From: an uncultured Nitrososphaerota archaeon
Lineage (GTDB): Archaea; Thermoproteota; Nitrososphaeria; Nitrososphaerales; Gagatemarchaeaceae
Direction of reading: 5' to 3'
Assembly (NCBI GenBank): GCA_963838925.1
Contig: CAWISW010000001.1
Location: 347,745 to 411,744 of the forward strand
DNA length: 64,000 nucleotides
Shown here one piece after another: positions 261-16,882 of this stretch. A program made the translations under genes and the position numbers. The notes under the pieces were generated by a model. That model searched no databases, was not told the origin of the DNA, and saw only the letters and a list, made by a program, of their open reading frames with translations. How positions within the stretch are numbered: position 1 is the first letter of the stretch; each line of letters opens with the position of its first letter.

Positions 261-374
261 GCAATACACTCCGGTAAGGCGTGAGCCAAACTTGCAAATC
301 TTTTACACCTATTTAGCTTTTGTGGAGAATTAGGCCTTCTGAGGTTCAGGTTTGCATCCGTTTTCTCCTTGGGA

Positions 375-510
375 GAATCGACGGCCAGTGCAGGTTCTGT
401 TAACTCTTCAGCTCAGGCAGTGGGCGAGTCAACTTGCTGGCATCGACTCGGAGGATTAGGGTCTTCCTCGTCCCGTTCCCCGTCACTGCTTCACCTGCCA
501 GCCCTTTCTC
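375..510 (-). ncRNA. Predicted omegaRNA (reRNA) of tnpB copy 1; boundaries approximate
   Basis: 3' region strongly conserved with copy 2. Hairpin CGAGTC..GACTCG at 425-450 whose loop (TGCCAGC in RNA sense) is complementary to GCTGGCA at 496-502 (possible pseudoknot). Conservation ends exactly at the TIR. Confidence 0.6.
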
Positions 511-1714
511 CTCCTCTATCGTGTGCGAGCGACTTTCCTCCTCTCGCCTCTCCGACCGAGGAGAAAGGGAACGGTCGAACCTGGACCGCCCCCTCTCGGA
601 TAGGTTCAGGGCCGCGTTCACGTCCCTGTAAATCCACTCCTTGCACTTCTGGCACCAGAGCATCCTCGCGTGCGCGACATCACCCCTTGCAGGATTGTGG
701 AGCTTCTCCCCACACGCCGAGCACGTCGAGGATGACCCGTAGGTCTCAGACTTTGTCAGCAGAACCACAGTCAGGCCCTTCCATGCTGCCTTGTATTCGA
801 GCATCTTCTTCGCCTTCCGGTGGGGCCACGAGTTGAGCCTGAACCTGTAGCCTGCACCTTGCCCGTTCCCTCTTTGGTACAACCTCCTGATGTCGGTCAG
901 GTCCTCGATAGCAAGCGCAGCCCCTTGCCTCGCCGCGTCATCGACGATATAGTTCGTGGCCGCGTGGAGGATCTGGTCGCTCCTGTGACGGGCCCTACTC
1001 CAGTACTTGCGGGCGAGATTCCTTCGTATCCTGACGTCGTTCCTCTTGAACGATCCGACTATCTCCCTGGTCGTCTGCCTCATCTTGACCAACTTCGTCA
1101 TCTCGACCAAGGTGACGTTTTCTTTATCACCGAACGTGATGTTCTTCTCGTTCCTGTCCAAGCCATAGACTCTTCTTATCTCAACAGGTTCGATGTGCTT
1201 CGAATAGCAGAGCGATAGCGAGTCGGGAGTTATGGTGAGGCTCCTGACCTTCCCCTCTGAGAGCTTCCTGACCGCATATTGATTGAGCTTTATGTCGAAA
1301 TACTTGTCACGTCTCAGCGGGATGAAGAGCCTCCCCTTCATTGTGATGAAGAAACCCGAGATGATACATGAAACCGGTCTCAAAGGCCTGGGATGGGCTG
1401 CTTTGATTCCTCGCTTCTCGCCTTTGTTGCGACTTTGGACGACTGCGCAGGCGCGCGTTATCGACGCGACCTTGTAACAAGAAGGAAACTCGGTGTTCCT
1501 GAGCGTCCGGTAGAATCCCTTCATCCCCTTGCGGTTCTCAATCCCATGTGCTTCGGCGTAGTTGACTGCGTCATAGGTCGCTGTTAGACATTCGTTAAGC
1601 AGACCACGTAGCTGCTCGCTGGAATGCGATTGGGTGACACACTTTGTTGCCCGCAACAATCATCTGGGATGCAATCGTATAAACGCGCCCATGAGCCGAA
1701 GAGTTACCAGAGCC
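393..1714 (-). mobile_element. Non-autonomous tnpB-carrying element with terminal inverted repeats and 8-bp TSD (copy 1)
   Basis: GGTTCTGTTAACTCTTCAGCTCA (393-415) and TGAGCCGAAGAGTTACCAGAGCC (1692-1714) are inverted repeats (20/23). CCAGTGCA is directly repeated at 385-392 and 1715-1722. The only gene inside is tnpB. Confidence 0.9.
400..1659 (-). CDS. tnpB: TnpB/Cas12f-like RNA-guided endonuclease
   Basis: RuvC-I YGLDRNEKN, RuvC-II LAIEDL, Zn finger CSACG..CQKC, RuvC-III RDVNAALN. The stop codon lies inside the right TIR. Confidence 0.9.
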   Translation of the reverse strand: MLRATKCVTQSHSSEQLRGLLNECLTATYDAVNYAEAHGIENRKGMKGFYRTLRNTEFPSCYKVASITRACAVVQSRNKGEKRGIKAAHPRPLRPVSCIISGFFITMKGRLFIPLRRDKYFDIKLNQYAVRKLSEGKVRSLTITPDSLSLCYSKHIEPVEIRRVYGLDRNEKNITFGDKENVTLVEMTKLVKMRQTTREIVGSFKRNDVRIRRNLARKYWSRARHRSDQILHAATNYIVDDAARQGAALAIEDLTDIRRLYQRGNGQGAGYRFRLNSWPHRKAKKMLEYKAAWKGLTVVLLTKSETYGSSSTCSACGEKLHNPARGDVAHARMLWCQKCKEWIYRDVNAALNLSERGRSRFDRSLSPRSERREEESRSHTIEEEKGLAGEAVTGNGTRKTLILRVDASKLTRPLPELKS

Positions 1715-1728
1715 CCAGTGCATCAAGC

Positions 1729-1736
1729 TTTTATAT
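1729..1736 (+). promoter_or_regulatory. TATA box of the membrane protein/wHTH operon
   Basis: TTTTATAT in GC-rich context, ~50 bp upstream of ATG 1787. Confidence 0.55.
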
Positions 1737-1786
1737 CGAGCCCGGCACTTTGTCGCCAGGTCGCGCTCGTGGGCTCAGAGTTGGTC

Positions 1787-2416: not shown

Positions 2417-2690
2417 GACCCAGGGCAAGATCATCGCGGACATCCTGGTCACCGCCCGAGACATGAACACCGACGGCCAGGGCGTGGGGATCACCACGCT
2501 GCTCAGGCGCGGGAACGTCTCCTACAGCAGGATGACCAAGCTGATAGTCGACCTTGTGGGAGCGGGCCTCCTTCTCGAGGAGACCATGGAGAAGAACTCA
2601 AAGTATCGCATAAGCGACAAGGGGATGATGTTCCTCCAGGCATACATGCAGTTCGAGGACTTCGCCCAGTCCTACGGATTGAGACTCTAA
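2403..2690 (+). CDS. Winged-HTH transcriptional regulator (archaeal HTH_45-like)
   Basis: YRTQGKIIADIL..ITTLLRRGNVSY..LL..YRISDKG pattern; overlaps the upstream gene. Confidence 0.75.
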   Translation: MPQYRTQGKIIADILVTARDMNTDGQGVGITTLLRRGNVSYSRMTKLIVDLVGAGLLLEETMEKNSKYRISDKGMMFLQAYMQFEDFAQSYGLRL

Positions 2691-2769
2691 GGGCCTCTCT
2701 CGCGGCTTTAGGCTAGCTTTTTTACTGCCTGTAGGTGCTGTCGCGTCCGGAGCGGTCGGCTAGCAAGAA

Positions 2770-3687: not shown

Positions 3688-3798
3688 CTCCGACCGCAAG
3701 CAAGAACTACGCGGATTGACGAAAACAGCGAGATATGGCTCGCCGTCGCTCATTTCCCCGAATACTTTTATTGCCGGTATGACGGCGTTGGGACGACA

Positions 3799-4977: not shown

Positions 4978-6113
4978 GCACCACAGCCCCGGCGGCCACG
5001 ACCTCTGCCAAGGTGACCCTGGCGGACTACAAGGACGTCTGGGTCTTCCTGCAGCGCGACGACGGCCACCTCTCCAACGACTCGCTGGAGCTACTCGCCG
5101 CGGGAAGGAAGGTCGCGGACCAGGCGGGCCAGAAGCTCGTGGGGCTACTGCTCGGGAACCACCTCAGGGGTCTGGCTGAGGAGGCCGTCGACCACGGCGC
5201 CGACGATGTCCTCGTGGTGGACGACCCCGCGCTCCGTACGTACAACACGATGAGGATGATAGACACCCTCGAGGCGATGACGCTGAAGAGGAAGCCCTAT
5301 GCGATAATCTTCCTAGCGACCGAGTTCGGCAGGGAGCTCGCGGCCAGGCTAGCATACAGGGTGAACACAGGAGTCGCGACTGACAACGTGGACTTTGAGG
5401 TCCAGGACTACTTCAACCCGAAGTTCAACGAGATGTTCCCCAAGACCCTTACCCAGGTCAGGCCTGACTTTGGGAGCAGGGTCGCGAAGATCTGGACGCC
5501 ACGCCACAGGCCACAGATAGCGAGCCTGAAGCCAGGGAGCTTCGCACCGCTCCCGCGCAACCCCGCAAGAAGGGCGAGCGCGAAGATCGAAAAGGTGCAG
5601 TTGCCCCGCCCCGGCAAGACCTACCCGCTCACGGTGAAGGAGCTCGTCGAGCTTCCAAAGCCCAATTTCGACCTCGAGCACGCCGACGTTGTCATCGGCC
5701 TCGGGATGGGCATCCTCCGCGGAGCGGACGGCTCTCCGAGGAACCCCATCGACGCCTTCAAGCTCGCCACCGAGCTCAAGGAGCTCATAGAGAGGAAGTG
5801 GGGCCTCAAGACGGAGATAGGGGCTTCGAGGGGGCTGGTCATGGCCAACGTGAAAGCTCTAGAGGGGATAATCACTCGCGACCACGAGCTGGGTCAGACC
5901 GGGACCCTCATCAGTCCGCAGCTCTACATCGCCCTGGGAGTCAGCGGCTCCGCCCCCCACAGGGGAGGGATCAAGGCAAAGAAGATTCTCGCGGTGAATC
6001 CCGACCCCACGGCACCTATCCACCTGGCAGCCCAGTACTCCGTGGTCGCCGACCTCTACGACTTCGTCCCGAAGCTCATCGACACGCTAGAAGCCCTGCC
6101 CGACAAAGCTTGA
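4974..6113 (+). CDS. fixB: Electron transfer flavoprotein alpha subunit (FixB)
   Basis: GRELAARLA, GASR, GQTG..PQLYIALGVSG, AVNPDPTAPI. Confidence 0.88.
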   Translation: MSTTAPAATTSAKVTLADYKDVWVFLQRDDGHLSNDSLELLAAGRKVADQAGQKLVGLLLGNHLRGLAEEAVDHGADDVLVVDDPALRTYNTMRMIDTLEAMTLKRKPYAIIFLATEFGRELAARLAYRVNTGVATDNVDFEVQDYFNPKFNEMFPKTLTQVRPDFGSRVAKIWTPRHRPQIASLKPGSFAPLPRNPARRASAKIEKVQLPRPGKTYPLTVKELVELPKPNFDLEHADVVIGLGMGILRGADGSPRNPIDAFKLATELKELIERKWGLKTEIGASRGLVMANVKALEGIITRDHELGQTGTLISPQLYIALGVSGSAPHRGGIKAKKILAVNPDPTAPIHLAAQYSVVADLYDFVPKLIDTLEALPDKA

Positions 6114-7834
6114 GTGCCACCGGCGCCGAATACGACGCGATCGTGGTAGGGGCCGGACCCGGAGGGTCGGCTGCGGCGCTCACGCTGGCCCGCAAGGGGG
6201 CGAAGGTCCTCCTCATCGAGAAGGCGAAGGTGCCCGGTGAGAACAACGTCTCGGGGGGCGTGCTCTACGGCGACTTCACCAAGGGGTACGGCCTGAAGGA
6301 CCTGGTCCCCGAGTTCGAGTCGGAGGCGCCCCTCGAGCGGAAGGTCCTCTCGCACGAGGTCAACATCCTCTCGGCTCCAGACACGAGGAGCGGGACCTAC
6401 CAGCGCTACCACCTCGACGGGAACTCCTTCCTCGCCAGGCTCGGCTTCTTCACCGTCGAGATCCAGACGGGACACGACTACACGGTGCTCCGGAGCGAGT
6501 TCGACCGATGGTTCGCCGAGAAGGCCGCCGATGCCGGCGCGGTCCTCATGGCGGGGACGACCGTTCGGGGGCTCCTGACCGACGCGCCCGAGAAGAAACC
6601 GGAGGGCGTCGAAGACGAGGGCGAGCACGAGCCCGCGGTCATAGGCGTTAAGACATCAAGGGGCGACATCCGCGCGAAGCTCGTGATCGACTGCTCCGGG
6701 GTGACCTCGAACCTCGTCGAGGAGGCCGGGCTCAGGGGGCAGCTCGGGCCGAGGCAGCTCTACCACTCGATCAAGCACGTCTTCCGCCTCTCGAAGGACG
6801 ACGTGGACAAGAGGTTCAAGCTCAGGGAGGGCGAGGGCCGCGCGATAAACTGTTTCGGCGACTTCATGCAGGGGGTGAGCGGGAGCGCCTTCATCTTCAC
6901 CAACCGCGACACGGTCTCTGTGGGGGTCGTCGCCTCCGTCGACTCGATGGTGCGCGCCTTCACGGAGCACTTCGACGCAGCGGGCACCCTGCGCGACGTG
7001 CTCGACGCCTTCGAGGCGCACCCCTACACCTCGGACCTCCTAAAGGGGGCCGAGCCCCTCGAGTTCTCCTCTCACAACATCCCCCGCGGGCACGTCGCGA
7101 TGCTGAAGAAGCCGTACGCCAGCGGCTACCTCCCGACTGGCGACGCCCTCGGGGCGTTCATCAAGATCGGCCCCCTCTTCGACGGAATGAGGCGCGCCAT
7201 CGCGAGCGGGATCATGGCAGCCGAGGCATACCTCCTCGCGAGCGAGTCGGGCTCCTTCCGCGCGTCCAACCTCTCCCGCTACAAGGACATGCTCGCCCCC
7301 CTCTACGAGGACGTGAACAGGTCTGGGAGGGAGAGCTTCTTCGCCGAGAGCGGGTTCGCCTACGGCACCCTCCCTCGCCTCCTCTTCTCTTCCTCGGTCT
7401 TCTCGAAGAAGGTGAAGTTCGAGGCTGCGACCGAGCCCAGGGCGGTGAAGAGCCCCCCGCCGCCGTCCGATGCTGACGGGCCCTCGGCCCGGATCACGGT
7501 CGACCTCGAGGCCGCTTCCAAGTCTTCTGTCAAGCCATGGGTCCCCATCTGCCCCGTGGGGTGCTTCACGCTGGTCACCCCGAAGGGGACGTTCGTCTCC
7601 TACAAGGACCTCTACGCCTCGAACTACAAGGCGGTCGCCTCCTCCCCCGCGAACCAGAGCGGGCTCGACGTCCTCGCCTACCGGGAGACCGTCAAGGACA
7701 TACTCGAGGGGACCCTGGCCTTCGACGGGAGCTCGTGCGTAGGCTGCGGGACGTGCGCCGAGATAGGCCCGAGGGAGCTGGTGGCGCTCGAGCCCGAGGA
7801 GGAGGGGCGGGGCGCGCGGTACAGCTACGGGTAG
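6110..7834 (+). CDS. fixC: FixC-type ETF:quinone oxidoreductase fused to a C-terminal FixX-like ferredoxin
   Basis: YDAIVVGAGPGGS, N-terminal SGG motif, GDALG; C-terminus PICPVGCF..CVGCGTC. Start TTG 6110 overlaps the fixB stop. Confidence 0.8.
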   Translation: MSATGAEYDAIVVGAGPGGSAAALTLARKGAKVLLIEKAKVPGENNVSGGVLYGDFTKGYGLKDLVPEFESEAPLERKVLSHEVNILSAPDTRSGTYQRYHLDGNSFLARLGFFTVEIQTGHDYTVLRSEFDRWFAEKAADAGAVLMAGTTVRGLLTDAPEKKPEGVEDEGEHEPAVIGVKTSRGDIRAKLVIDCSGVTSNLVEEAGLRGQLGPRQLYHSIKHVFRLSKDDVDKRFKLREGEGRAINCFGDFMQGVSGSAFIFTNRDTVSVGVVASVDSMVRAFTEHFDAAGTLRDVLDAFEAHPYTSDLLKGAEPLEFSSHNIPRGHVAMLKKPYASGYLPTGDALGAFIKIGPLFDGMRRAIASGIMAAEAYLLASESGSFRASNLSRYKDMLAPLYEDVNRSGRESFFAESGFAYGTLPRLLFSSSVFSKKVKFEAATEPRAVKSPPPPSDADGPSARITVDLEAASKSSVKPWVPICPVGCFTLVTPKGTFVSYKDLYASNYKAVASSPANQSGLDVLAYRETVKDILEGTLAFDGSSCVGCGTCAEIGPRELVALEPEEEGRGARYSYG

Positions 7835-7847
7835 ACGCTGCTCGCGC

Positions 7848-9266
7848 CTAGCCGGTGCCGGAGTTGAGCCTCTCGAGCTTGAACGCCGAGTGTATGGCCC
7901 TCACCGTCTCTTTCGCGTCTCTCTCCGCCACGATGAGCGAGATGTTCTGGTTCGAGGAGCCCGACGCGATCATCTTGATGTTTATCCCCCTGGCGGAGAT
8001 CGCCCCGAAGGCCGTGGCCGCCACGCCCTTGGTGGTCCTCAGCGACCCCCCCACTATCGCTACCGCGCTGACGTCGTTCTCCGTGAGTATGTGTCTGTAG
8101 CCGCCCTGACCGAGCAGGGCCAGCTCGAGGGCGTTCACCCCCTTCTCCATCGACGACCTCGCGACAACCATGCTGATGTTCGACTCCGACACGCTCTGGG
8201 AAATCATCAAGACGTTGATGCCGCTTCGGCCCATGACGTCGAATATCCTCGCCGCGCTCCCGGGCTTCCCCACCATGCTCGCGCCCGCCACGGTGATGAT
8301 CGCCACCTCCCTCACAAGCGCCACCGCCTTCACCACGTTCTTCGAGTAGAGCTTGGGGTTCCTCTTCACGACGGTGCCGGGGTCCTTCGGGTGGAAGGTG
8401 TTCCTGAACCTGACGGGGATTCCCTTCTCCGCGACCGGCTCCAGCGTGCGCGGGTGGAGCGCCTTGGCGCCGAAGACCGCCATCTCTCCGGCCTCCTCGT
8501 AGGAGATCTCCCGGAGGACCTTGGCGTTCGGAACGATCCTCGGGTCGGCCGTCATGAGGCCGTCGACGTCGCTCCAGATCCAGACCTCGTCCGCGTCGAT
8601 GGCGGATGCGATTATCGTCCCCGTGAAGTCCGACCCCCCACGGCCGAGGGTGGTCGTGTCCCCGCTCTGGGTGGCCCCGATGTAGCCCGTGATGACCGGG
8701 GTCTTCCCCTCCTCGAGGAGGGGAGCGAGCTTCTCCCTCACCTGGAACTTGGTCACCTCCATGAGGGGCGTGGCGTCGCCGAACCTGTCGTCGGTCATTA
8801 TCCCCGCCTCTCCGCCCGTCATGTAGACGGCGCGCATCCCGCGCTCTATCAGCGCGCCCATGATTATGGGGTTGGAGAGCCTCTCGCCGCACGCGAGGAT
8901 CGCGTCCTTCGACCTGGGGGTCAGCTCCCCGAGCACGGTGCTCCCCCGCGCGAGCTTCTCCAGCTGGCTGAGCGTGACGTTGAGCACCCCGAGCACCTGG
9001 CGCCTCACCGCCTTGTCGCTCACCGTCGCGCTGAGCGCGGCGAGGTGGCTCTTCCTTATCGAGGCGAGCCTCTCCTCAACAGGCTTCTCCAGCCCCTTCG
9101 AGGCGTCGGAGCAGAGCGCGAGGAGCTGGTCTGTGACGTCCCCCATCGCCGAGCAGACGACGACGACGCTGTGGCCCTTCCCGCTGTCCTTGACCCTCTC
9201 CGCGACGTTCTTTATGCGCTCGGCCGACGCGACGGAGCTCCCGCCGAACTTCATGATTATCTTCAT
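7848..9266 (-). CDS. lysC: Aspartate kinase
   Basis: MKFGGSSV, TTLGRGGSD, WSDVDG..ADPR, two ACT domains. Confidence 0.95.
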   Translation of the reverse strand: MKIIMKFGGSSVASAERIKNVAERVKDSGKGHSVVVVCSAMGDVTDQLLALCSDASKGLEKPVEERLASIRKSHLAALSATVSDKAVRRQVLGVLNVTLSQLEKLARGSTVLGELTPRSKDAILACGERLSNPIIMGALIERGMRAVYMTGGEAGIMTDDRFGDATPLMEVTKFQVREKLAPLLEEGKTPVITGYIGATQSGDTTTLGRGGSDFTGTIIASAIDADEVWIWSDVDGLMTADPRIVPNAKVLREISYEEAGEMAVFGAKALHPRTLEPVAEKGIPVRFRNTFHPKDPGTVVKRNPKLYSKNVVKAVALVREVAIITVAGASMVGKPGSAARIFDVMGRSGINVLMISQSVSESNISMVVARSSMEKGVNALELALLGQGGYRHILTENDVSAVAIVGGSLRTTKGVAATAFGAISARGINIKMIASGSSNQNISLIVAERDAKETVRAIHSAFKLERLNSGTG

Positions 9267-9267
9267 C

Positions 9268-10341
9268 TCAGCCCAGACCCCCGCTGATGCCGCTCATGCT
9301 GTAGGCTGAAATCGTCGCTCCCTGCCCGTTGATCTTCCCCCTGATCTCTATCAAGTCTCTCAACAACGACGAGGCGGTCTCGGGGCCTCCCGCCCCCTTC
9401 CCTATTATCACCTTCGGGCCCGAGTACTCGCACTCGAACTCGACGGCGTTGTTCGCGCCGTTTATGCAGAGGGGGTGGTCCCTCTTTATCACCGTGGGCT
9501 CGACGACGAGGCCCCTCTCCGCGGAAACCGACGCTATGAGCCTTATCGCCTTTCCCTTCTTCTTGGTCTTCAGGACCTCCGCTGAGGACATCCCCCTTAT
9601 CCCGCTCACCTTCACGTCCTTGATCCCCGCCTTGCTCAGCTGCAGGTGGTTCGCTGTGATCACCAGCTTGACCGCGCTGTCGTACCCGTCGATGTCCAGG
9701 GAGGGGTCTGCCTCCGCGTACCCCGCCTTCTGCGCCCCGTCCAGCGCCTCGGCGAACGGGACGCCCTGCTGCTCCATCCTAGTGATTATGTAGTTGCAGG
9801 TCCCGTTGAGTATTCCCCTGATCCCGATGAGCTGGTCGCCGACGGAGCAGGTCTTCCCAAAGTCGAGCACCGGCGTCCCCCCTCCCACCGCCCCGCTGAA
9901 CCTCAGCTGGACCCCGTTGTGCCGCGCGAGCTCGTGGAGCGCGTAGTACGCCAGGGAGAGCGGGCCCTTGTTGCACGTTACGACGTGCTTCCTGCTCTCG
10001 AAGGCGGCCTTCATGTGCGAGAACCCGGGCTCCCCGGTCTTGAAGTTGGTTGGCGTGGCCTCGATGAGGACCTCGGCCTCCAGGTCCCTTATCACGTCGG
10101 CGGCGCTACTCTGCCCCTCGGCCCTGCGCCCCTTCGGGCTCACCCTTCCCGTGTCCTTCTTCGACTTCAGCGCTCTCTTGAGGTCGACCCCGTGCTCGTC
10201 GATGAGCCATCCGGAGCTGTCCATGATGCCGACCACCTGGGGCACCAGCCCGTAGTTCGCCGCGAGCTCCTTCTCCTGGGCCATGAGGAGCCGGGCAAAG
10301 CTCTGCCCGACTATCCCGAAGCCGGCCAGGACCAGTCTCAA
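9268..10341 (-). CDS. hom: Homoserine dehydrogenase
   Basis: GFGIVG, HVVTCNKGP, GILNGTCNY, GYAEADPSLDIDGYD, GAGGPETA. Confidence 0.95.
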   Translation of the reverse strand: MRLVLAGFGIVGQSFARLLMAQEKELAANYGLVPQVVGIMDSSGWLIDEHGVDLKRALKSKKDTGRVSPKGRRAEGQSSAADVIRDLEAEVLIEATPTNFKTGEPGFSHMKAAFESRKHVVTCNKGPLSLAYYALHELARHNGVQLRFSGAVGGGTPVLDFGKTCSVGDQLIGIRGILNGTCNYIITRMEQQGVPFAEALDGAQKAGYAEADPSLDIDGYDSAVKLVITANHLQLSKAGIKDVKVSGIRGMSSAEVLKTKKKGKAIRLIASVSAERGLVVEPTVIKRDHPLCINGANNAVEFECEYSGPKVIIGKGAGGPETASSLLRDLIEIRGKINGQGATISAYSMSGISGGLG

Positions 10342-10449
10342 GGACGGTGCCCAGCCCCGGTTCGGCTTTAGGAGTTTCGGTGGTGCGGGCCTGCCTTCGG
10401 AAGCCTTCCGGGAATGGTTAATAGTTCCAAGAGGCCATTTTCACGCGAC

Positions 10450-11802
10450 ATGAGCGCCCCCAAGGAGCGTGCGACATTCCTGACGCAGGACGAGATACCG
10501 ACCTCATGGTACAACATACAGGCGGACCTCCCGGAGCAGCTCCCGCCGCCGCTCGACCCGGGGACGCACAAGCCCATGTCCCCCGAGCCGCTCTTCAGGC
10601 TGTTCCCGAAGGAGCTCGTCGGGCAAGAGGTCTCCCAGGAGAGGTGGATCAAGATCCCCGACGAGGTGCTCGAGGCCTATCGGTGGCTGCCGCGCCCGAC
10701 GCCCCTCTTCCGCGCGTACAAGCTCGAGAACTTCCTGAAGACTCCGGCGAAGATCTACTACAAGTGGGAGGGCGCCAACCCCACGGGGAGCCACAAGCCG
10801 AACACGGCGCTCGCCCAGGCCTATTACAACATGAAGGAGGGCACGAAGAGGCTCTCGACGGAGACGGGCGCCGGTCAGTGGGGCTCCGCGCTCTCCATGG
10901 CGGGCGCCTACTTCGGGCTCAAGGTCCGCGTCTTCATGGTGGCCGCGAGCTACAACCAAAAGCCCGGCAGGAGGACCATGATGGAGACCTGGGGCGCGGA
11001 GTGCGTCTCGTCCCCGAGCAACAAGACCAAGTTCGGCAGGTCCCTCCTCGCGAAGGACCCCAAGGATCCGGGGTCGCTTGGCATCGCGATAAGCGAGGCG
11101 ATTGAAGATGTGCTCGCCGACGACGGCGCGAAGTACAGCCTGGGCTCGGTTTTGAACCACGTCCTGCTCCACCAGACCGTCATCGGGCTGGAGCTGAAGA
11201 AGCAGCTCGAGATGCTCGACGTCACACCAGACATGGTCGTGGGGAACATCGGCGGGGGCTCTAACTTCGGAGGCTTCTGCTTGCCTCTGATGGGCGACAA
11301 GATCTCCAAGAGGCTGCGAATGGACTTCGTCGCCTGCGAGTCGAGCGCCATCCCGCACACCACCAAGGGGAAGTACACCTACGACTTTGGTGACACGGCC
11401 GGGATGACGCCGCTCCTGAAGATGTACACGCTTGGGAAGGACTACAAGACCCCGCCAATCCACGCGGGAGGCCTGAGATACCATGCGATGGCTCCGATAA
11501 TCTCCTACCTCATCAACAAGGGATACATGCGCTCCGTGGCTTTCACCCAGAAGGAGGTCTTCGAGGCCGCCGTGACCTTCGCGAGGACGGAGGGCATCAT
11601 CCCCGCCCCGGAGTCCGCGCACGAGATCAAGTTCGTAATCGACGAGGCGCTAAGGTGCAAGGAGAAGAGGGAGGCCAAGGTCATCGTCTTCAACAACTCG
11701 GGGCATGGGCTGCTCGACCTGAGCGCGTACCAGGCCTACCACGACGGGAAGCTCGAGGACTGGGCGCCGACGAAGATAGAGTACCCGAGCATGGTCGCGT
11801 AG
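10450..11802 (+). CDS. trpB2: Tryptophan synthase beta chain, type 2
   Basis: PTGSHKPNTA (PLP lysine), TETGAGQWG, GGGSN, IHAGGLRYH, PAPESAH, SGHGLLDL. Confidence 0.93.
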   Translation: MSAPKERATFLTQDEIPTSWYNIQADLPEQLPPPLDPGTHKPMSPEPLFRLFPKELVGQEVSQERWIKIPDEVLEAYRWLPRPTPLFRAYKLENFLKTPAKIYYKWEGANPTGSHKPNTALAQAYYNMKEGTKRLSTETGAGQWGSALSMAGAYFGLKVRVFMVAASYNQKPGRRTMMETWGAECVSSPSNKTKFGRSLLAKDPKDPGSLGIAISEAIEDVLADDGAKYSLGSVLNHVLLHQTVIGLELKKQLEMLDVTPDMVVGNIGGGSNFGGFCLPLMGDKISKRLRMDFVACESSAIPHTTKGKYTYDFGDTAGMTPLLKMYTLGKDYKTPPIHAGGLRYHAMAPIISYLINKGYMRSVAFTQKEVFEAAVTFARTEGIIPAPESAHEIKFVIDEALRCKEKREAKVIVFNNSGHGLLDLSAYQAYHDGKLEDWAPTKIEYPSMVA

Positions 11803-11809
11803 TCTGCCA

Positions 11810-13152
11810 AACGGGCGGTGGACCGCCCTCGGCTTCATCCGTGAGGTAGGGCGAATGGGCGCTTAAATCGAATTTGCAGTTTTGGGTTTCGGCCCAATTG
11901 AAGTCAGCTCTCCGGTTTCGTCTCTATCCGAACAGAAAGCAGGAGTGGAGGCTGATAAGGATGGTCGAGGCCGGGCGGCGACTGTGGAACATTGCTCTCT
12001 GCCACAGGAGACTGCGATGGGAGCAGAAGCGACTCTCCACCTCTTACAGCCAACAGTGCTTGATTCTTACTGCAGAGAGGCGCTTAGACCCGTTCTTGAA
12101 AGAGCTGTACTCACAAGCGGGTCAAGAGATACTCAAGCGCCTCGACAGGGCATTCCAGTCGTACTTCGACGGACGGGCAGGATATCCGAAGTTCAAAAAG
12201 TTCTCCGAATCGGGGTCGTTCACGTATCCTCAGGCTTACAAAGGATCTGTAAAGCCAGACATAGTGCGGAGGAGGCTCTTCCTCTCAAAGGTGGGAAATG
12301 TCAAGGTGGTTTTCCACAGAGAACTGCCTTCCGGGAGCGCGAGGTTGAAGACCTGCACCATTGTTAGGGAACCGAATGGCGAATGGTACGCGTCTCTGGT
12401 CTACGAGGTATACAGGGAATGGCCTCAACCGTGTAAGGCGTTTACATCGCCGGTTGGAGTGGATTTAGGACTGAAATCAGTCATAACCACAACCGATGGA
12501 ATCAAGATTGCACACCCTCAGTTCCTCAGGAAATCAGAGAGGCGGCTGAAGCATCTGAATCGAGCGCTTTCCAAAACGCTGAAAGCTTCGAGGAATAGAG
12601 AAAGAGCTCGCATAAAACTTGCGATCTGCTCGTCGACCGTCACGAGACAACGGACAGATTTCAATCAAAAACTGAGCCCATCACTGGTGCGGAAGCACGA
12701 TTTGATTGCCTTTGAGGACCTGAAGGTCAGGAATATGGTCAGGAACCGCGTTGTTGCGAAGTCCATTATAGATGCCGGATGGCATCAGATTCGAATCCTT
12801 ACAGAATACAAGGCAACATGGGCAGGGAAGCTCGTTGTGGGGGTGCCGGCAGCCTACTCGAGCCAGGAATGCTTCTTTTGCGGCACGCTAAACCAGGTTC
12901 CTCTAAGCGTCCGCGTCTTTGACTGCCGAGGTTGCGGCCGGACGTTGGACCGCGACCTAAACGCGGCGTGGATAGTGCTGAAGCGAGGATTCGCTCAGGT
13001 AGGGCAGGACATGCCCGAACTCAAGCCTGGGGAGACAGGACCTCTACCCGTCCCGGCAACGGGACGCGCAAGCCCCGTCGGTGAAGCAGGAACTACACGC
13101 GGCGAGCATCGAGCCGCTGGAATCCCAAAACCTCAGGTGGGAAGGATGTCAC
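11810..13152 (+). mobile_element. IS200/IS605-family (IS1341-like) tnpB-only element; left boundary approximate
   Basis: Subterminal hairpins at 11813-11845 (GGGCGGTGGACCGCCC; CTCGG..CCGTGAG). Right end ..GGATGTCAC. No TIR or TSD seen. Confidence 0.65.
11898..13152 (+). CDS. tnpB: TnpB (IS605 OrfB type with N-terminal HTH); no stop within the element, ORF reads on to 13565
   Basis: RFRLYPN HTH, GYPKFK, VGVDLGL, IAFEDL, SQECFFCG..CRGCG, DRDLNAA. Confidence 0.88.
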
Positions 13153-13568
13153 TTTTTCGACTCGCGCACGTAGTCTTCGAAGATCGCCTTGACCTTGTCG
13201 GCGGCGAGGCCGGAGCCCTCGGTCACCCCCTTGTCGGTGACCTTGATCTTCTCCATCACGATTATGGCCCCTATGTCCTCCCTCACCGAGACCAGCCCGG
13301 GGAACACCCTGTTGAGCCTCTCGCCCAGGGCCTTGAAGTCGAACGGCCTGTCCGTCAGCCTGATCTCGCGGACGTTGTCGCCGTTCATGGCGACCTTGAA
13401 GACGTTGGGCCCCGCCCCGACCACCTTGTCGAGGACGATGTTGAGCCTCTCGTCCGCCCCCACGAGCTGGCCGTTGTACTCCTTCCCATCGGCCGTAACA
13501 ACCACGACGTGCCTGCCAAGGAAGGCGTTCAACTCCTCCCCGAACTTTCGAAACACAACCGATGACAT
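13149..13568 (-). CDS. Sm-like (Lsm) RNA-binding protein, SmAP3-type with C-terminal domain
   Basis: VVVVTADGKEYNGQLVGADERLNIVL Sm1 motif plus C-terminal FDFKALGERL..PGLV..G..A; start at MSSVVF. Confidence 0.85.
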   Translation of the reverse strand: MSSVVFRKFGEELNAFLGRHVVVVTADGKEYNGQLVGADERLNIVLDKVVGAGPNVFKVAMNGDNVREIRLTDRPFDFKALGERLNRVFPGLVSVREDIGAIIVMEKIKVTDKGVTEGSGLAADKVKAIFEDYVRESKK

Positions 13569-13619
13569 CCGATTCGATTCCTGAACCTCCCGAGAGGGTA
13601 TATAGGAATTATTTCGGCC

Positions 13620-14959
13620 GGCGCTGGTAACTCCTCGGCGCATAGGCGCATATATTTGAATAACGCGAAAATGATTATTGCGAGCGACAAGGTCCGTCAC
13701 CCAGTCCCATTCCAGCCAGCAGCTTGCAAGCTTGCTCTCAGAGTGTCTGACGATGACTTGCAACGCCATTCACTACGCCCAAGAACACAAGATCAAGAGC
13801 CGCAGAGGAATGAAAGGGTTCTACAGGACGCTCAAGGACGTCGAGCTGCCTTTGTGCTACAAGGTCGGGTCGATATCGCGGGCTTGCGCCGTCGTCAACA
13901 GTCGCGAAAAGAGCGAGAGGCGAGGAGTCGCGGTCGGCCACCCCAAACCTCTTCGCCCGGCCGTTTGCATCACCTCGGGGTTCTTCATCACGATGAAGGG
14001 GAGGCTCTTCATCCCGTTGAGGCGTGACAGGTATTTCGACGTCCAGCTCAATCAGTACATAATGGACTGGCTCGCCGACAAGAAAGTGAGGAGCCTCACC
14101 ATTGCTTCCGACTCGCTCTCACTCTGCTACTCGGAGGACATCCGTCCAGCCCCTGTCAGGAGGGTCTACGGCGTCGACAGGAACGAGAAGAACGTCGCCT
14201 TCGGGGACAGAGAGAAGGTCATCCTGGTCGAGATGAAGAAGATTGTCAGGGTCAGGCAGACGACGAGGGAGATAGTCGCCTCGTTCAAGAGGAACGACGT
14301 CAGGATGCGAAGGAAGCTCTTCCGCAAGTACTGGAGGAGGGCGAACCACAGGGGCGACCAGATCCTCCACGCGGCCGCGAACTACGTCATCGACGTGGCG
14401 GCGAAAGACGGGGCCGCGCTAGCCATCGAGGACCTAAGGGGCATCAGGAAGCTGTACCGCAGGGGGAGCGGTCAGGGACCTGACTATAGGTTCAGGCTCA
14501 ACTCATGGCCGCACTGGAAGGCCAAGAAGATGCTCGAGTACAAGGCCGCTTGGAAGGGAGTGACGACGATTGCGCTCACGAGGTCTGACACCTATGGATC
14601 CTCGTCGACGTGCTCGGCGTGCGGGGAGAGGCTCCGCAGTCCTGCGAAGGATGATGTCGCGCACCGGAGGATGCTGTGGTGTCAGGCCTGCAGTAGGTGG
14701 ATAGACAGGGATGTGAACGCGCCCCTGAACCTGTCCATGAGGGGGCGGTCGAGGTTTGACCGTTCCCTTCCTTCCCGGTCGGAGCGCAATGAGGAGGAGG
14801 AAAGGCGCTCGCAACAAGCAACTCCCTCTTCCATCCCGACCGTGAAGGAGGAAGGGCTGGCAGGTGAAGCGGTGACGGGGAACGGGACGACTACCCTAAT
14901 CCTCCGAGTCGATGCCAGCAAGTTGACTCGACGGCGTGAGCCGAAGAGTTAACAGAACC
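13620..14959 (+). mobile_element. Non-autonomous tnpB-carrying element with terminal inverted repeats and 8-bp TSD (copy 2)
   Basis: GGCGCTGGTAACTCCTCGGCGCA (13620-13642) and TGAGCCGAAGAGTTAACAGAACC (14937-14959). TTTCGGCC is directly repeated at 13612-13619 and 14960-14967. Confidence 0.9.
13678..14952 (+). CDS. tnpB: TnpB/Cas12f-like RNA-guided endonuclease, paralog of 400-1659
   Basis: YGVDRNEKN, LAIEDL, CSACG..CQAC, DRDVNAPLN; colinear with copy 1. Confidence 0.9.
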   Translation: MRATRSVTQSHSSQQLASLLSECLTMTCNAIHYAQEHKIKSRRGMKGFYRTLKDVELPLCYKVGSISRACAVVNSREKSERRGVAVGHPKPLRPAVCITSGFFITMKGRLFIPLRRDRYFDVQLNQYIMDWLADKKVRSLTIASDSLSLCYSEDIRPAPVRRVYGVDRNEKNVAFGDREKVILVEMKKIVRVRQTTREIVASFKRNDVRMRRKLFRKYWRRANHRGDQILHAAANYVIDVAAKDGAALAIEDLRGIRKLYRRGSGQGPDYRFRLNSWPHWKAKKMLEYKAAWKGVTTIALTRSDTYGSSSTCSACGERLRSPAKDDVAHRRMLWCQACSRWIDRDVNAPLNLSMRGRSRFDRSLPSRSERNEEEERRSQQATPSSIPTVKEEGLAGEAVTGNGTTTLILRVDASKLTRRREPKS

Positions 14960-14977
14960 TTTCGGCCCGAAGTGCGA
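14850..14977 (+). ncRNA. Predicted omegaRNA of tnpB copy 2; boundaries approximate
   Basis: Hairpin 14905-14930 with loop TGCCAGC complementary to GCTGGCA at 14856-14862; same motifs as copy 1. Confidence 0.6.
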
Positions 14978-15040
14978 GAGCGGCGAAAGGTGGCGCGCTT
15001 CCTCGCAAACGTCAATAACGGCCCGTCGTCGGAGGCCCTC

Positions 15041-16882
15041 GTGAGCGCAAGAAGGCGCTACCTCGCGTTGCGCTTCGTGGTCACCTTCCTCGCCGCCCTC
15101 TCGCTCGTGGACCTCCTCTCGATGCTCGCCGTAGTCGGCTTCCACGCCTACTCGCCTTCGGCGGTCGCGACGGGGGTCCTGGCGCCCATGACGTTCATCC
15201 TGGCGGGAGCGTCGTCGGCCGCGCTGGCCCTTTCGCTCGTCTACGCCCTCCTCGCCTACCCGGCCTACCGCAACACCACGCTCCTCCTGGCTCTCATCGT
15301 GCTTGGGCTCCTCGGGGCCCACCTCTACACCATCAACACGCCCCCGCTGGGCACCACGGCCTCGCTGAGCGCGCCGATCGGGCACCCGGCCAACGACAAC
15401 CTCGTCACCCTGTCTTCGAGCCTCACCGGGACGACCCTCCGCGCCACTGTCGCCGTCTCGGACGTCTCGGGCAGCGACGCGGTCGGCTCGCTGTCCATCG
15501 CCGTGGGGAACACCGTGCTGCCCACCTCGGGATGGACGTTCGCCCCGACCACGGTCACCGCCTTGCAGCCTGGGTCGATCGACTCGGGCAACTGGTCCCT
15601 GCAGTCCGCCCCCTCAGGGCCCGTCACCCTCACCTACGAGGACCTGAAGTGCTACGCCACCGACAAGCAGGTCGACGGCTGCATAATGGACGAGGTCTAC
15701 TACGTCCCCGCCGCGCAGACCCTGCTGGCCGGCGAGAAGTGCGCCCCCTACGCGGACAACTGCAACCTGGAGCACCCCTTCCTATCCAAGGCCTTCATCG
15801 CTGCGGGGATAGCAATCTTCGGGAACGGGACATTCGGCTGGAGGATCTTCGAGGTGCTGCTGGGCACGTTCAGCGTCCCGGTCCTCTTCGGCATCTGCTG
15901 GTCGGTGACCCGCAACCAGAGGCTCTCCCTCTACGCCTCCTTCCTCCTCGCCTTCGAGACGCTCTTCTTCGCCCACTCCAGCATGGCGGTGATAGACGTC
16001 TCCGCCATCTTCTTCGGGCTCCTCGGCTTCCTGTTCTACTTCGCCAAGGTTCGCTGGTGGAAGTTCGATTCCATCGCCCTCACGGCCATCGCGTTCGGCC
16101 TCTCGGCACTCTGTAAGGAGACCGCGATCATGCTCCTCTTCGTCCTCCTCGCCTACCACCTCCTCTTCGGAGACGGGAGCAGGACGCGCCGGGTCCTCTC
16201 GTCCGTCGAGCTCGTCCTGTCCGTCTTCCTGGTCTTCGCCGTGGGCCTCCAGATCTACGACAGCCTCTTCGGGGCGGGTTCGGCGACCACGTTCCTGGGG
16301 CAGGTGGAGTTCATCCTGAAGTACGGGGCCTCGCTCACGATGACCCCGACCAGCCAGGGCTGGATCGACACGGTCCTGAAGACCCCCATCACGCCATGGA
16401 ACTGGATAACATACTACTCCCCGGTCGGATACCTGATCACCAACGTGAAGGTCACCACGGGGACGTCGTCCTACTCGTACGTCTCGGCCGGCTACTACGG
16501 CATCACCGACCAGTTCGAGGTCTGGATGGTCTACCTCTGGGGTGCCTACGCCGTCTACCTCTGGTGGAAGACCAGGGGGACGCAGTTCGCCACCGAGTCG
16601 GACGCGAAGGACTTCAAGGTTGTGCGCCTCGCGCTCGTCTGGTTCCTCGTCATCTTCCTCGCGTACCTCGCCCTCTTCTACTACGGGCGCATCACGTACC
16701 CATACTACTTCATCCAAGCCGTCCCGGCGCTCGCCGTGGGCGCCGCCTACTTCCTTACGAGGGGCTGGTTCCCGAAGCAGATAGCCTACATCGTCCTCGC
16801 CGGAGTCCTCCTCTGGTTCTTCATCTTCTACCCCGACAAGAGCTTCCTCCCGACGCAGCTCAGGGTCTGGCTGGGGCACTGA
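15041..16882 (+). CDS. GT-C glycosyltransferase (PMT/GT39-like) with an extra extracellular domain
   Basis: MDEVYYV, NLEHPFLSK, FGWR, CKE motifs and many TM helices; start placed by alignment to the downstream paralog. Confidence 0.8.
   Translation: MSARRRYLALRFVVTFLAALSLVDLLSMLAVVGFHAYSPSAVATGVLAPMTFILAGASSAALALSLVYALLAYPAYRNTTLLLALIVLGLLGAHLYTINTPPLGTTASLSAPIGHPANDNLVTLSSSLTGTTLRATVAVSDVSGSDAVGSLSIAVGNTVLPTSGWTFAPTTVTALQPGSIDSGNWSLQSAPSGPVTLTYEDLKCYATDKQVDGCIMDEVYYVPAAQTLLAGEKCAPYADNCNLEHPFLSKAFIAAGIAIFGNGTFGWRIFEVLLGTFSVPVLFGICWSVTRNQRLSLYASFLLAFETLFFAHSSMAVIDVSAIFFGLLGFLFYFAKVRWWKFDSIALTAIAFGLSALCKETAIMLLFVLLAYHLLFGDGSRTRRVLSSVELVLSVFLVFAVGLQIYDSLFGAGSATTFLGQVEFILKYGASLTMTPTSQGWIDTVLKTPITPWNWITYYSPVGYLITNVKVTTGTSSYSYVSAGYYGITDQFEVWMVYLWGAYAVYLWWKTRGTQFATESDAKDFKVVRLALVWFLVIFLAYLALFYYGRITYPYYFIQAVPALAVGAAYFLTRGWFPKQIAYIVLAGVLLWFFIFYPDKSFLPTQLRVWLGH

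Follow-up and report, generated by a model that had tools for sequence, protein, structure and literature searches.

A candidate TnpB guide RNA ending in the terminal inverted repeat of an IS6-like archaeal element

Introduction

The biology of TnpB has been worked out in IS200/IS605 and IS607 elements, which excise without leaving a scar and make no target-site duplications (TSDs). The locus described here raises the question of an OMEGA nuclease housed in a DDE transposon, that is, in an element whose insertion duplicates the target and which is probably never excised.

IS200/IS605 elements have neither terminal inverted repeats (TIRs) nor TSDs according to the available text of a review (PMC13565253), where the DDE families given as carrying TnpB are ISL2, IS630 and IS1031. 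For DDE-associated TnpB branches, the available text of Altae-Tran et al. (2023, PNAS, PMC10691335) describes TnpB genes lying between inverted terminal repeats, with the 3' end of the gene less than 250 bp from the end of the element, and solo TnpBs whose ends resemble those of transposase-carrying relatives. The main text of that study names IS630 and has no occurrence of IS6, IS26 or IS240, and its supplementary tables may include the present clade. IS6-family elements transpose replicatively and are not excised, replicative cointegrate transposition being known for IS26-type members; in its available text, the review of this family (PMC7986276) contains no occurrence of TnpB and records a single member with a passenger gene. 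No link between IS6 elements and TnpB was found in the literature searched.

Here we describe an element and an RNA that are a variation on the known TnpB/omegaRNA theme, in an IS6-like setting, found in a 64,000-nucleotide stretch of DNA from an uncultured Nitrososphaerota archaeon (hereafter, the window). We put at about 60% the probability of our main reading, in which a non-autonomous transposon carries a guide RNA of the TnpB type (omegaRNA, or reRNA) whose 3' portion is the right-hand region of the element and whose guide starts at the TSD.

Results

A TnpB-like gene lies between inverted repeats and target-site duplications

The genome contains three copies of an element of about 1.33 kb, two within the window and a third on another contig (identity 100, 82 and 77%), and all three are bounded at both ends by TIRs of about 22 bp and an exact 8/8 TSD. 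Copy 2 (13620..14959, + strand, 1340 bp) is flanked by TTTCGGCC at 13612..13619 and 14960..14967 (+), and copy 1 (393..1714, - strand, 1322 bp, with its ORF at 400-1659 on the same strand) by TGCACTGG at 1715-1722 and 385-392 (-); the TSD of the third copy is CCTTCTTA, likewise an exact 8-mer. Over its first 14 positions, the left TIR of copy 2, GGCGCTGGTAACTCCTCGGCGC (13620..13641, +), agrees with the reverse-complemented right end at 11, and the right TIR, GAGCCGAAGAGTTAACAGAACC, occupies 14938..14959 (+). The string GTTAACAGAACC is found twice in the window (14948-14959, +, and 393-404, -), and the TIR pattern, allowing zero or one mismatch, matched nothing genome-wide except the six ends of the three copies.

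The initial annotation had placed the limit of conservation at the end of the element, and two observations agree with this: similarity between the copies ends after ..GAACC, and six public metagenome contigs (four from one run and two from another, in a single study) match as far as 14959, beyond which their sequence is different. Among the metagenome contigs of those runs, no empty allele was seen, that is, no joint across the element (window 1-16000). The copy-2 locus is empty in five genomes of the same genus, where the orthologous loci retain GGGTATATAGGAATTA followed by a single TSD-like 8-mer. A TATA-like box to the left of copy 2 (13599-13604, +) is host DNA and is present in the five empty alleles.

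In every full-length copy, tnpB is the sole ORF that the TIRs enclose; in copy 2 it spans 13678..14952 (+) and encodes a protein of 424 amino acids matching Pfam Cas12f1-like_TNB at 51 bits (cutoff 26.3). Its stop codon, TAA at 14950-14952, falls within the 22-nt right TIR, as had been noticed earlier. The NCBIfam guided_TnpB score of the protein is 69 bits against a cutoff of 100, and neither OrfB_IS605 nor HTH_OrfB_IS605 matched it. The protein can be aligned to TnpB and Cas12f structure chains, and in an alignment of 15 proteins the RuvC residues D167, E251 and D345 and the zinc-finger residues C335 and C338 are invariant, with C312 and C315 nearly so. Judged by its sequence, the gene product is a divergent TnpB with intact catalytic residues. 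Proteins of this clade are small, about 380-425 amino acids, and the element family occurs in Nitrososphaerota, Bathyarchaeia and other archaea.

With tnpB as the only ORF between the TIRs, and with a transposase encoded by none of the 20 ORFs neighbouring tnpB in relatives, the TnpB-like protein might itself be taken for the transposase of this TIR/TSD element. We find this barely credible, as fresh TSDs also surround miniature elements (MITEs) that have no tnpB, and DDE transposons that carry these TIRs and make 8-bp TSDs are present both in this genome and in relatives. Moreover, we know of no TnpB that integrates DNA.

IS6-like transposons share the ends of the element

No DDE transposase is encoded within the TnpB element, and in this genome the strict TIR pattern did not reveal any autonomous partner whose TIRs were nearly identical; partners were found via relatives and then by a protein search of this genome. 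The TIR type of the TnpB element also flanks elements encoding DDE_Tnp_IS240 (49-56 bits, cutoff 27). Four transposase homologues are present in this genome, two of them inside elements that have an exact 8/8 TSD and a TIR agreeing with the right TIR of the TnpB element at 18 of 22 positions. The partner transposases, of 377-424 amino acids and with an N-terminal zinc-binding domain, score 124.8, 101.4 and 110.4 bits with NCBIfam IS6, against a cutoff of 125. The ends of the TnpB element, with an 8-bp TSD and short TIRs starting with GG, are themselves as in the IS6/IS26 family. Because its TIRs and TSD length are those of IS6-like DDE transposons, we consider the TnpB element to be non-autonomous and most likely mobilised in trans by their transposase.

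A predicted, covarying RNA ends at the outer tip of the right inverted repeat

The last ~110 nt of the element had been described as more conserved between copies than the DNA just upstream, and pairwise identity among the three genomic copies bears this out, at 87-93% for the last 108 nt (14852-14959) compared with 48-68% for 14770-14851 and 77-83% for the body of the ORF. The predicted scaffold runs from about 14739 to 14959 and takes in the final ~70 codons of tnpB, and across the element family the predicted RNA is ~130-220 nt long. Its 5' end probably lies near 14739, at the start of a predicted hairpin with a covarying stem and a conserved loop (14739..14769, +), which extends the RNA beyond the interval 14850-14980 to which it had been assigned. 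Next comes a variable expansion (14770..14851, +), which folds as a long hairpin, is missing in distant relatives and is deleted in compact scaffolds, followed by the conserved core (14852..14959, +; 122.3 bits with covariance model R1). In copy 1 the core matches the model at 393-506 (-, 113.1 bits), and the predicted upstream hairpin and variable stretch reach about 590.

Five helices make up the proposed structure of the core, all on the + strand. P1 (GCTGGCA/TGCCAGC, 14856-14862 with 14913-14919) is a long-range helix around two small ones, P2 (14877-14880 with 14901-14904) and P3 (14884-14886 with 14894-14896); then come P4 (14922-14929 with 14946-14953), P5 (14932-14935 with 14940-14943) and the 3' tail AGAACC (14954-14959). 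In this structure P4, P5 and the tail all draw on the right TIR: it holds the 3' strand of each of the two helices, its outer part is made up of GAGUUAAC, the 3' half of the terminal stem, and AGAACC, and in the stem GTTGACTC/GAGTTAAC it is the GAGTTAAC strand that lies inside the TIR.

A nucleotide alignment of the core was possible across 27 loci encoding proteins with only 28-78% identity to the query. In 26 sequences, 88.7% of the cells of the proposed structure are paired, compared with 73.8% in shuffles (0 of 500 reaching 88.7%) and 26-44% when the partners were slid by one to three columns. Both sides have changed in 16 of the 26 pairs, and compensatory changes are present in four helices. 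At pair 85-134 of P4, for example, the combinations are CG (12), GC (6), UA (2), UG (2) and GU (1), with none of the 23 unpaired and three more sequences gapped. The pairing of GCTGGCA with TGCCAGC, which the initial annotation had proposed as a pseudoknot, is real (95% of cells paired, five of seven pairs compensatory), but it becomes a nested long-range helix once the stem GTTGACTC/GAGTTAAC is in place. When 14739-14959 was folded without constraints, the minimum-energy structure reproduced these helices (z = -4.72), and its stability was reached by 0 of 200 shuffles.

A hairpin CGAGTC..GACTCG had also been put forward. The 26-nt string containing it does occur twice in the window (14905-14930, +, and 425-450, -), where 100 shuffles gave an expectation of 0, but it is unconserved in relatives: as a helix it has only 66.7% of cells paired; at two of its pairs 10 of 26 sequences are unpaired, and at another pair 15 of 26 are. 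For copy 1, the minimum-energy structure has this hairpin in place of P4. The hairpin and the better-supported stem GTTGACTC/GAGTTAAC are mutually exclusive, and the hairpin was discarded as a candidate conserved helix.

The terminal GAACC probably pairs with GGUUY in the upstream hairpin loop (GAGGTTT, 14751-14757, +), a candidate pseudoknot like that of other TnpB RNAs. Loop and tail are complementary at five of five positions in 101 of 112 scaffolds, compared with 5 of 112 for a control 5-mer; the pair consists mostly of invariant bases, with both sides changed in only three scaffolds and mismatches in 11 of the 112.

The predicted RNA accompanies related TnpB genes and persists in RNA-only MITEs

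No Rfam family matched in the window at the gathering score, and a search with window 13400-15400 returned no RNA sequencing run carrying the stretch. A covariance model built from homologues, a check that the initial annotation had suggested, found the RNA behind every related TnpB locus searched, with an end that is always ..AGAACC. Matches to this model (R1) number seven places in this genome and 17 places in 26 sources; they were obtained in 24 of 151 genomes of the order and in 39 of 39 fetched loci, and 80 named MAG loci yielded 83 matches, while none of nine autonomous DDE loci was matched. RNA-only MITEs of 218-360 bp retain TIRs, TSD and scaffold and lack the tnpB ORF. The earlier proposal of an omegaRNA-like RNA ending at the outer tip of the TIR is thus supported by covariation, by R1 matches at TnpB loci and by these MITEs.

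Conservation of the 3' end might instead reflect nothing beyond the C-terminal tail of TnpB and a transposase-binding TIR, with no functional RNA. The tail, GLAGEAV.GN..ILRVDASKL, is conserved at the protein level (E397, A398, I408, L409 and K415 invariant among the 15 aligned proteins), and there is at least one codon whose third position is free to vary (GCN within GAAGCNGTG). Protein and TIR constraint would not, however, account for the compensatory changes in four helices, for the scaffold kept by MITEs that have no ORF, for conservation running 7 nt beyond the stop codon to the tip of the element, or for R1 matches that accompany proteins just 28-40% identical to the query, and we regard this explanation as very unlikely.

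A sequence motif precedes the left target-site duplication

The proposal that the guide starts with the TSD receives indirect support from the flanks of 48 distinct insertions, comprising 31 of 80 loci and 17 new ones from 76 named-MAG loci (four duplicates dropped). No confident TIR and TSD were present in 49 of the 80 and 55 of the 76 loci, which were truncated or decayed, contained Ns or were missing the left end; L046 (implausible length, 2053 bp) and loci whose downstream sequence was shorter than 20 nt were left out of the flank counts. Across the 48 insertions the TSDs have no consensus. Two nucleotides 5' of the left TSD (position -2), T is present in 40 of 48 insertions (1.1 bit); a purine stands at -1 in 37 of 48 and T at -3 in 28 of 48. 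At -2 of the mirrored right flank, T occurs in 18 of 48 (Fisher p = 8e-6 vs left). A TSD without consensus preceded by T at -2 fits a target-adjacent motif (TAM) adjoining a guide that starts with the TSD.

The initial annotation had guessed at a T-rich TAM. At the level of the family this guess holds, given the T at -2, but the two copies in the window fit it loosely: the four nucleotides ahead of the left TSD are ATTA in copy 2 (13608-13611, +; its candidate TAM) and TTGA in copy 1, with GTTT in the third genomic copy. The window's own subfamily, with ATTA, GTTT, TTGA, CTTT, TTAA, CGCT, TTTA, TCAA and GTTA at this position, matches the motif only loosely.

The RNA could also be an omegaRNA whose scaffold includes the 8-nt TSD and whose guide starts after it, as in eukaryotic Fanzor. 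For Fanzor1 and Fanzor2* with TIRs and TSDs, the available texts of PMC10711439 and a review (PMC13565253) draw TIR and TSD as scaffold and have reRNAs running about 15 nt past the TSD. In the present family, 48 TSDs without a consensus make a conserved scaffold from the TSD impossible. Such an arrangement would also put the TAM in the last bases of the TSD, where the best preference, T at TSD position 7 (22/48), is not strong, and the sharp motif sits 5' of the TSD instead. We therefore think it improbable that the guide starts after the TSD.

A different explanation accepts the RNA and takes the left-flank motif to be something other than a TAM, reflecting target choice by the DDE transposase or survival of insertions downstream of host TATA boxes (promoter capture). 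Runs of six or more A/T at about -22..-6 are found on the left in 17 of 48 omegaRNA elements and on the mirrored side in 6 of 48, and autonomous elements, which are without the omegaRNA, have them in 7 of 10 and 3 of 10, respectively. As the run is also present at autonomous elements, this asymmetry belongs partly to the landing or survival sites of the family rather than to TnpB; the host TATA-like box beside copy 2 agrees with such an account, and T at -2 is itself present in 4 of 10 autonomous elements. That frequency is nevertheless lower than the 40 of 48 in omegaRNA-bearing elements (Fisher p = 0.009, with a small autonomous control), and no position of the TATA region exceeds 0.24 bit, compared with 1.1 bit at -2. 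Furthermore, a dimeric DDE transposase would be expected to favour symmetric targets, and the motif is missing on the mirrored flank. The autonomous control was drawn from 85 fetched loci (40, 40 longer re-fetches and five earlier), of which 15 had credible GGTTCTG-type TIRs and a TSD of at least 7/8, and 10 of these were usable, as they did not abut another element; the best matches in the loci outside those 15 were chance inverted repeats and were dropped. On balance, a motif unconnected with TnpB seems to us rather doubtful, and we retain the reading of the motif as a candidate TAM.

Discussion

If the guide starts at the TSD, transcription out of the right end of the element would yield a guide composed of the 8-nt TSD and then the right flank; for copy 2 this would be TTTCGGCC followed by CGAAGTGCGAG.., with the right-hand TSD supplying nucleotides 1-8, a role suggested by the flank motif. 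Such a guide would match the unoccupied allele completely, and there the match would follow the candidate TAM, the motif of the left flank with T at -2 and a purine at -1. Where the element is inserted, the complete match would come after ..AACC, which is not the motif, and the left junction would match the guide over 8 nt only. With a guide RNA made partly of the end repeat of the transposon, each new insertion would probably redirect the nuclease to the copy of its landing site that is still unoccupied. Because IS6-type transposition proceeds without excision, the classical role of TnpB, re-cutting the excision site, would not apply as such. A likely role for the nuclease would be to cut empty alleles, into which the element would then be copied during repair; such homing or retention would be well suited to polyploid archaea.

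More speculatively, TnpB and its RNA may not be mere passengers, and reading of the TAM may be coupled to the final site of the element, a proposal that we consider unlikely but of wider consequence. TnpB might cooperate physically with the DDE transposase at integration, or TSD-seeded homing might fix only TAM-adjacent insertions in polyploid cells, and either route would give insertions in a fixed register of TAM, 8-bp TSD and TIR, with host TATA boxes typically lying just upstream. Were such coupling true, the TIR would have a dual use, as transposase binding site and as a guide-RNA stem with a pseudoknot, and RNA-guided transposon maintenance would extend to a replicative, TSD-making DDE transposon.

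The family offers a compact natural case, combining a ~1.3-kb element, a TIR-embedded stem, variable TSDs, a candidate TAM, autonomous partners and RNA-only MITEs. It opens to test the distinction of self from non-self at two junctions, homing in polyploid archaea, and the joint evolution of a guide-RNA scaffold and the site to which a transposase binds. In addition, a divergent clade of small TnpBs with a defined scaffold joins the pool of candidate genome editors.

Like the TnpB of IS200/IS605 elements (ISDra2; IS1341-type solo tnpB), the present system pairs a RuvC and zinc-finger nuclease with an RNA that overlaps the 3' end of tnpB, its scaffold ends at the right boundary of the transposon, and its guide would come from flanking DNA. 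The candidate pairing of the scaffold 3' end with the upstream loop is comparable to the pseudoknot of ISXfa1, an IS607-type TnpB, as given in the available text of PMC10711439. Unlike IS200/IS605 elements, the TnpB element has TIRs and TSDs, and Y1 TnpA is not part of it; the TAM cannot be a TnpA target site, and the first eight bases of the guide would be duplicated target. With TIRs of 22 bp and exact 8-bp TSDs in three of three copies, the element is not a member of IS200/IS605, although its nuclease is homologous.

The 8-bp TSDs, the short TIRs starting with GG, the DDE_Tnp_IS240 core of the partners and the MITE derivatives are all as in IS6/IS26 (PMC7986276, available text), whereas the partner elements, at 2.0-5.5 kb and with extra ORFs or restriction-modification-like cargo, are unlike the ~0.8-kb IS6/IS26 elements. 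Fanzor1 and Fanzor2*, as described in the available text of PMC10711439, resemble the TnpB element in being non-autonomous, in having TIRs and TSDs, in encoding only the nuclease and in placing TIR bases in the guide-RNA scaffold; they differ in that their TSD belongs to the scaffold and that Fanzor1 is without a pseudoknot, whereas here the TSD is variable, the motif lies 5' of it and the pseudoknot candidate is kept. The element is also like the DDE-associated TnpB branches of Altae-Tran et al. (PMC10691335), with TnpB inside inverted repeats, the 3' end of the gene less than 250 bp from that of the element, and ends shared with transposase-carrying relatives, and the TIR-embedded stem, the proposed start of the guide at the TSD, the flank motif and the RNA-only MITEs go beyond the account given in the available text of that study.

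A TnpB element inserted with inverted repeats and 8-bp target duplications

The element carrying the proposed guide RNA (copy 2; 13620-14959, + strand, 1340 bp) has a second copy in the window (copy 1; 393-1714, - strand) and a third on another contig, and these two are 82% and 77% identical to it. All three copies have terminal inverted repeats (TIRs) of ~22 bp (left GGCGCTGGTAACTCCTCGGCGC, right end ..GAGCCGAAGAGTTAACAGAACC) and are flanked by exact 8-bp direct repeats (TTTCGGCC, TGCACTGG and CCTTCTTA). Because the copy-2 locus of five same-genus genomes lacks the element and holds a single TTTCGGCC-like 8-mer after conserved host GGGTATATAGGAATTA, copy 2 is genuinely inserted and the 8-mer is a real target-site duplication (TSD). 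Compared pairwise, the three copies are 87-93% identical over 14852-14959, 48-68% over 14770-14851 and 77-83% in the ORF body. The initial annotation held that conservation halts exactly at the right end, and similarity indeed stops at 14959 in all comparisons. Six metagenome contigs from one study also match as far as 14959 but differ from there on, as expected of this element inserted at other places. The tnpB stop codon (TAA, 14950-14952) does lie within the right TIR, as had been noted, and the sequence strings quoted with it are present where they were placed, in the two window copies only. For the membrane-protein gene that follows copy 2, the longest ORF (14936-16882, +) has a GTG start within the right TIR of the element; since element-free relatives align only from ~15040 (GTGAGCGC..) on, the true start of this gene is probably downstream of the insertion.

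The sole ORF between the TIRs encodes a protein of 419-435 aa in the three copies that matches Pfam Cas12f1-like_TNB (51-55 bits, cutoff 26.3) and keeps the RuvC D/E/D residues and zinc-finger cysteines. As its NCBIfam guided_TnpB score (69) falls under the cutoff of 100, it appears to be a divergent TnpB. An unrelated second TnpB of ordinary IS605 type (11874-13150, +; Pfam OrfB_IS605, TNB and HTH_OrfB_IS605) lies ~470 bp 5' of copy 2; its frame is open until 13565, through the antisense of an Sm-like gene, and the stop at 13150 is tentative.

The element shares its ends with IS6-like DDE transposons

According to passages of a 2026 review (PMC13565253), TIRs and TSDs are both absent from IS200/IS605 elements, and membership of that family was therefore excluded. 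In the source genome a strict TIR pattern had no match other than the six copy ends, and in relatives no transposase was found among 20 neighbouring ORFs. When the TIR pattern was searched for in five relatives, such ends turned up around larger elements, one of them a 2.3-kb element whose DDE_Tnp_IS240 protein (424 aa) has a zinc-binding domain at its N-terminus. Two large transposons bounded by these TIRs, each with an exact 8-bp TSD (locus L064, 537-6012, genome G165, 5.5 kb; L065, 537-5162, genome G144, 4.6 kb) carry an 804-959-aa N6-methylase/Eco57I/TaqI_C-type restriction-modification protein with a DDE transposase, plus a DUF3800 protein in one. The source genome has four homologues of the DDE_Tnp_IS240 transposase, two of which lie in autonomous IS6-like elements: those of 1983 bp (contig C2, ~509147-511130; L069 1474-3456) and 2384 bp (contig C3, ~179310-181693; L070 1479-3862), each with an exact 8-bp TSD and TIRs GGTTCTGTTCAA.., encode 383-388-aa DDE transposases with an N-terminal zinc-binding domain, along with extra ORFs that have no family match. 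The TIR of the 1983-bp element is identical to the right TIR of the TnpB element at 18 of 22 positions.

The partner transposases align to the NCBIfam IS6 model from end to end, scoring 101-125 bits (cutoff 125), and 8-bp TSDs and GG-initial TIRs are given as family hallmarks in excerpts of an IS6 review (PMC7986276). Since IS6-like DDE transposons with the same ends and 8-bp TSDs occur, some in the source genome, the TnpB element is most plausibly non-autonomous, riding on this family, and is likely mobilised in trans by an IS6-like transposase. Such a transposase is present in 67 of the 201 genomes searched in the order (a tally that takes in genome G108, flagged as unpublished): 14 of the 24 TnpB-positive genomes versus 53 of the 177 others, a comparison that is rough because of the relatedness of the genomes, which makes them non-independent.

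Of 15 credible autonomous elements, five (L066, L128, L141, L142 and L270) start exactly 8 bp past another element's ..ACAGAACC end, and L138 and L288 have GGTTCTG 8 bp past the right end. For this recurring tandem junction (end, 8 bp, end), targeting beside resident ends and dimer-like intermediates are candidate causes.

A predicted guide-RNA scaffold ends at the tip of the TIR

A protein search found TnpB relatives in 24 of 201 genomes of the order. The last ~110 nt are alignable at the nucleotide level in 27 loci, even with proteins only 28-40% identical to the query, and similarity always ends after ..AGAACC. Two structures, that of the initial annotation and an alternative, were compared on one alignment of 26 sequences. 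The long-range pairing first proposed, of GCTGGCA (14856-14862) with TGCCAGC (14913-14919), was strongly supported, with 95% of cells paired, five of seven pairs changed on both sides, and variants such as CTTGCA/TGCAAG, CGATGCA/TGCATCG, CTTCCA/TGGAAG, CGAGGCA/TGCCTCG and CGCAGCA/TGCTGCG. The proposed hairpin CGAGTC/GACTCG, three of whose six pairs are unpaired in 10, 10 and 15 sequences, was rejected as a conserved feature: 66.7% of its cells are paired. The whole alternative model is 88.7% paired (73.8% in shuffles, 0 of 500 reaching it; 26-44% with partners slid by 1-3 columns). The alternative stem joins GTTGACTC (14922-14929) to GAGTTAAC (14946-14953), its 3' strand lying within the TIR, and holds a small hairpin (14932-14943, +). 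In the 23 sequences with letters at one of its pairs, CG occurs 12 times, GC six, UA two, UG two and GU once, with none unpaired. Such a stem makes GCTGGCA/TGCCAGC a nested helix instead of the pseudoknot first read.

Further upstream, a covarying hairpin (14739-14769) bears a conserved loop, GAGGTTY. Full 5/5 complementarity between this loop and the terminal GAACC is seen in 101 of 112 distinct scaffolds (control 5-mer, 5 of 112). This candidate pseudoknot is near-invariant on both sides, with double-sided change in only three scaffolds and mismatches in 11. The poorly conserved stretch noticed earlier (14770-14851) is a variable expansion hairpin, missing from distant relatives. An unconstrained fold of 14739-14959 gave exactly the helices of the alternative model (z = -4.72, 0 of 200 shuffles as stable); because the fold of copy 1 favours CGAGTC/GACTCG (z = -1.9), thermodynamics alone would not settle the choice of stem.

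A covariance model built from the RNA alignment (R1), one of the checks that had been suggested for the RNA, matched seven places in the source genome and, across the order, 24 of 151 genomes (again taking in G108, from which no locus was retrieved). It also matched every further TnpB locus retrieved and gave no match in nine autonomous transposon loci. Elements of 218-360 bp with a fresh TSD were found to keep both TIRs and scaffold but no tnpB ORF. These RNA-only, MITE-like elements (L083 1491-1801 in G144; L067, L085, L090, L101, L103 and L111) have TSDs matching at 7-8 of 8 positions; one example is 311 bp long, with an 8/8 TSD and no ORF >87 aa. Three of them (L085, L101 and L111) have ..ATGACC or ..GTGACC as their terminus and, in the interior, resemble a different sub-type. 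That elements lacking tnpB keep the scaffold argues for selection on the RNA, not on the protein tail alone; as the C-terminal tail of TnpB is conserved at the protein level too, the 3' region of tnpB appears to be dual-coded. A weak R1 match (L079, C2:601711-601790, - strand; 80 nt, 43.9 bits), at which a search for TIRs and a TSD found none, is probably a decayed remnant. Taken together, we estimate a probability of roughly 85% that the region is a TnpB guide-RNA scaffold, as predicted, ending at the TIR tip.

Guide start, flanking motif and proposed role

Ends were set on the right by R1 and on the left by TIR and TSD for 48 insertions, 31 confident ones from 80 loci and 17 further non-duplicates from 76 loci of named MAGs spanning Nitrososphaerales, Nitrosopumilales, Bathyarchaeia, Methanomethylicota and one Asgard archaeon. 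The TSD has no consensus. Counting 5' from the left TSD, T occupies -2 in 40 of 48 (1.1 bit), a purine -1 in 37 and T -3 in 28, versus T at -2 in 18 of 48 mirrored right flanks (Fisher p = 8e-6). Autonomous elements have T at -2 less often than RNA-bearing ones (4/10, p = 0.009), though this control is small. Such a one-sided motif abutting the TSD is how a TAM would look for a guide beginning at the TSD. The guide start in the initial annotation, at the TSD, fits both the missing consensus and this motif, and we consider it somewhat probable. Its T-rich TAM agrees with the T at -2 and -3 upstream of natural insertions, but the window copies (ATTA and TTGA) match loosely and some autonomous elements share the T at -2; we regard the odds that the motif is a TAM as even.

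An A/T-rich, TATA-like stretch at ~-22..-6 on the left side accompanies 17 of 48 RNA-bearing insertions (6/48 mirrored) and 7 of 10 autonomous elements without the RNA (3/10 mirrored). In the window, the boxes are TATATA at 13599-13604 (copy 2), which the five empty alleles retain as promoter-like host DNA, and ATATAAAA at ~1731-1738 on the minus strand (copy 1). Both kinds of element tend to sit ~6-16 bp downstream of a box oriented to read into the element. Since the stretch is found in both, a position immediately 3' of TATA-like boxes, in a single orientation, is a trait of the entire family.

An empty allele would present motif, TSD and right flank in order, an occupied right junction ..AACC, TSD and flank, and the left junction would match the guide over 8 nt only. 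We tentatively propose, at somewhat below even odds, that the nuclease would cut empty alleles and thereby cause the element to be copied into them. As IS6-type transposition is replicative (excerpts of PMC7986276), the targets would be unoccupied chromosome copies, not excision scars. Putative non-cutting binding at the left junction, also suggested initially, is not favoured.

Comparison with known systems

A 2023 paper (PMC10691335, in part) described TnpBs in inverted-repeat DDE transposons, among them solo TnpBs bearing the same ends; its main text, supplementary tables aside, does not name IS6. For DDE-associated TnpB, passages of the 2026 review (PMC13565253) name ISL2, IS630 and IS1031, TnpB goes unmentioned in the IS6 family review (PMC7986276), and a literature search for IS6 together with TnpB found nothing relevant. 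The candidate GAGGTTY/GAACC pairing resembles IS607-type TnpB RNA, in which, according to portions of PMC10711439, the 3' end of the scaffold forms a pseudoknot with an upstream loop. In the eukaryotic Fanzor elements described in the same portions the TSD is part of the scaffold, whereas here it is variable and the proposed start of the guide. To what is known, these results add an IS6-like partnership of a TnpB element in archaea, a TIR predicted to double as RNA stem and tail, a variable TSD as proposed guide start with an adjacent motif, and RNA-only MITEs.
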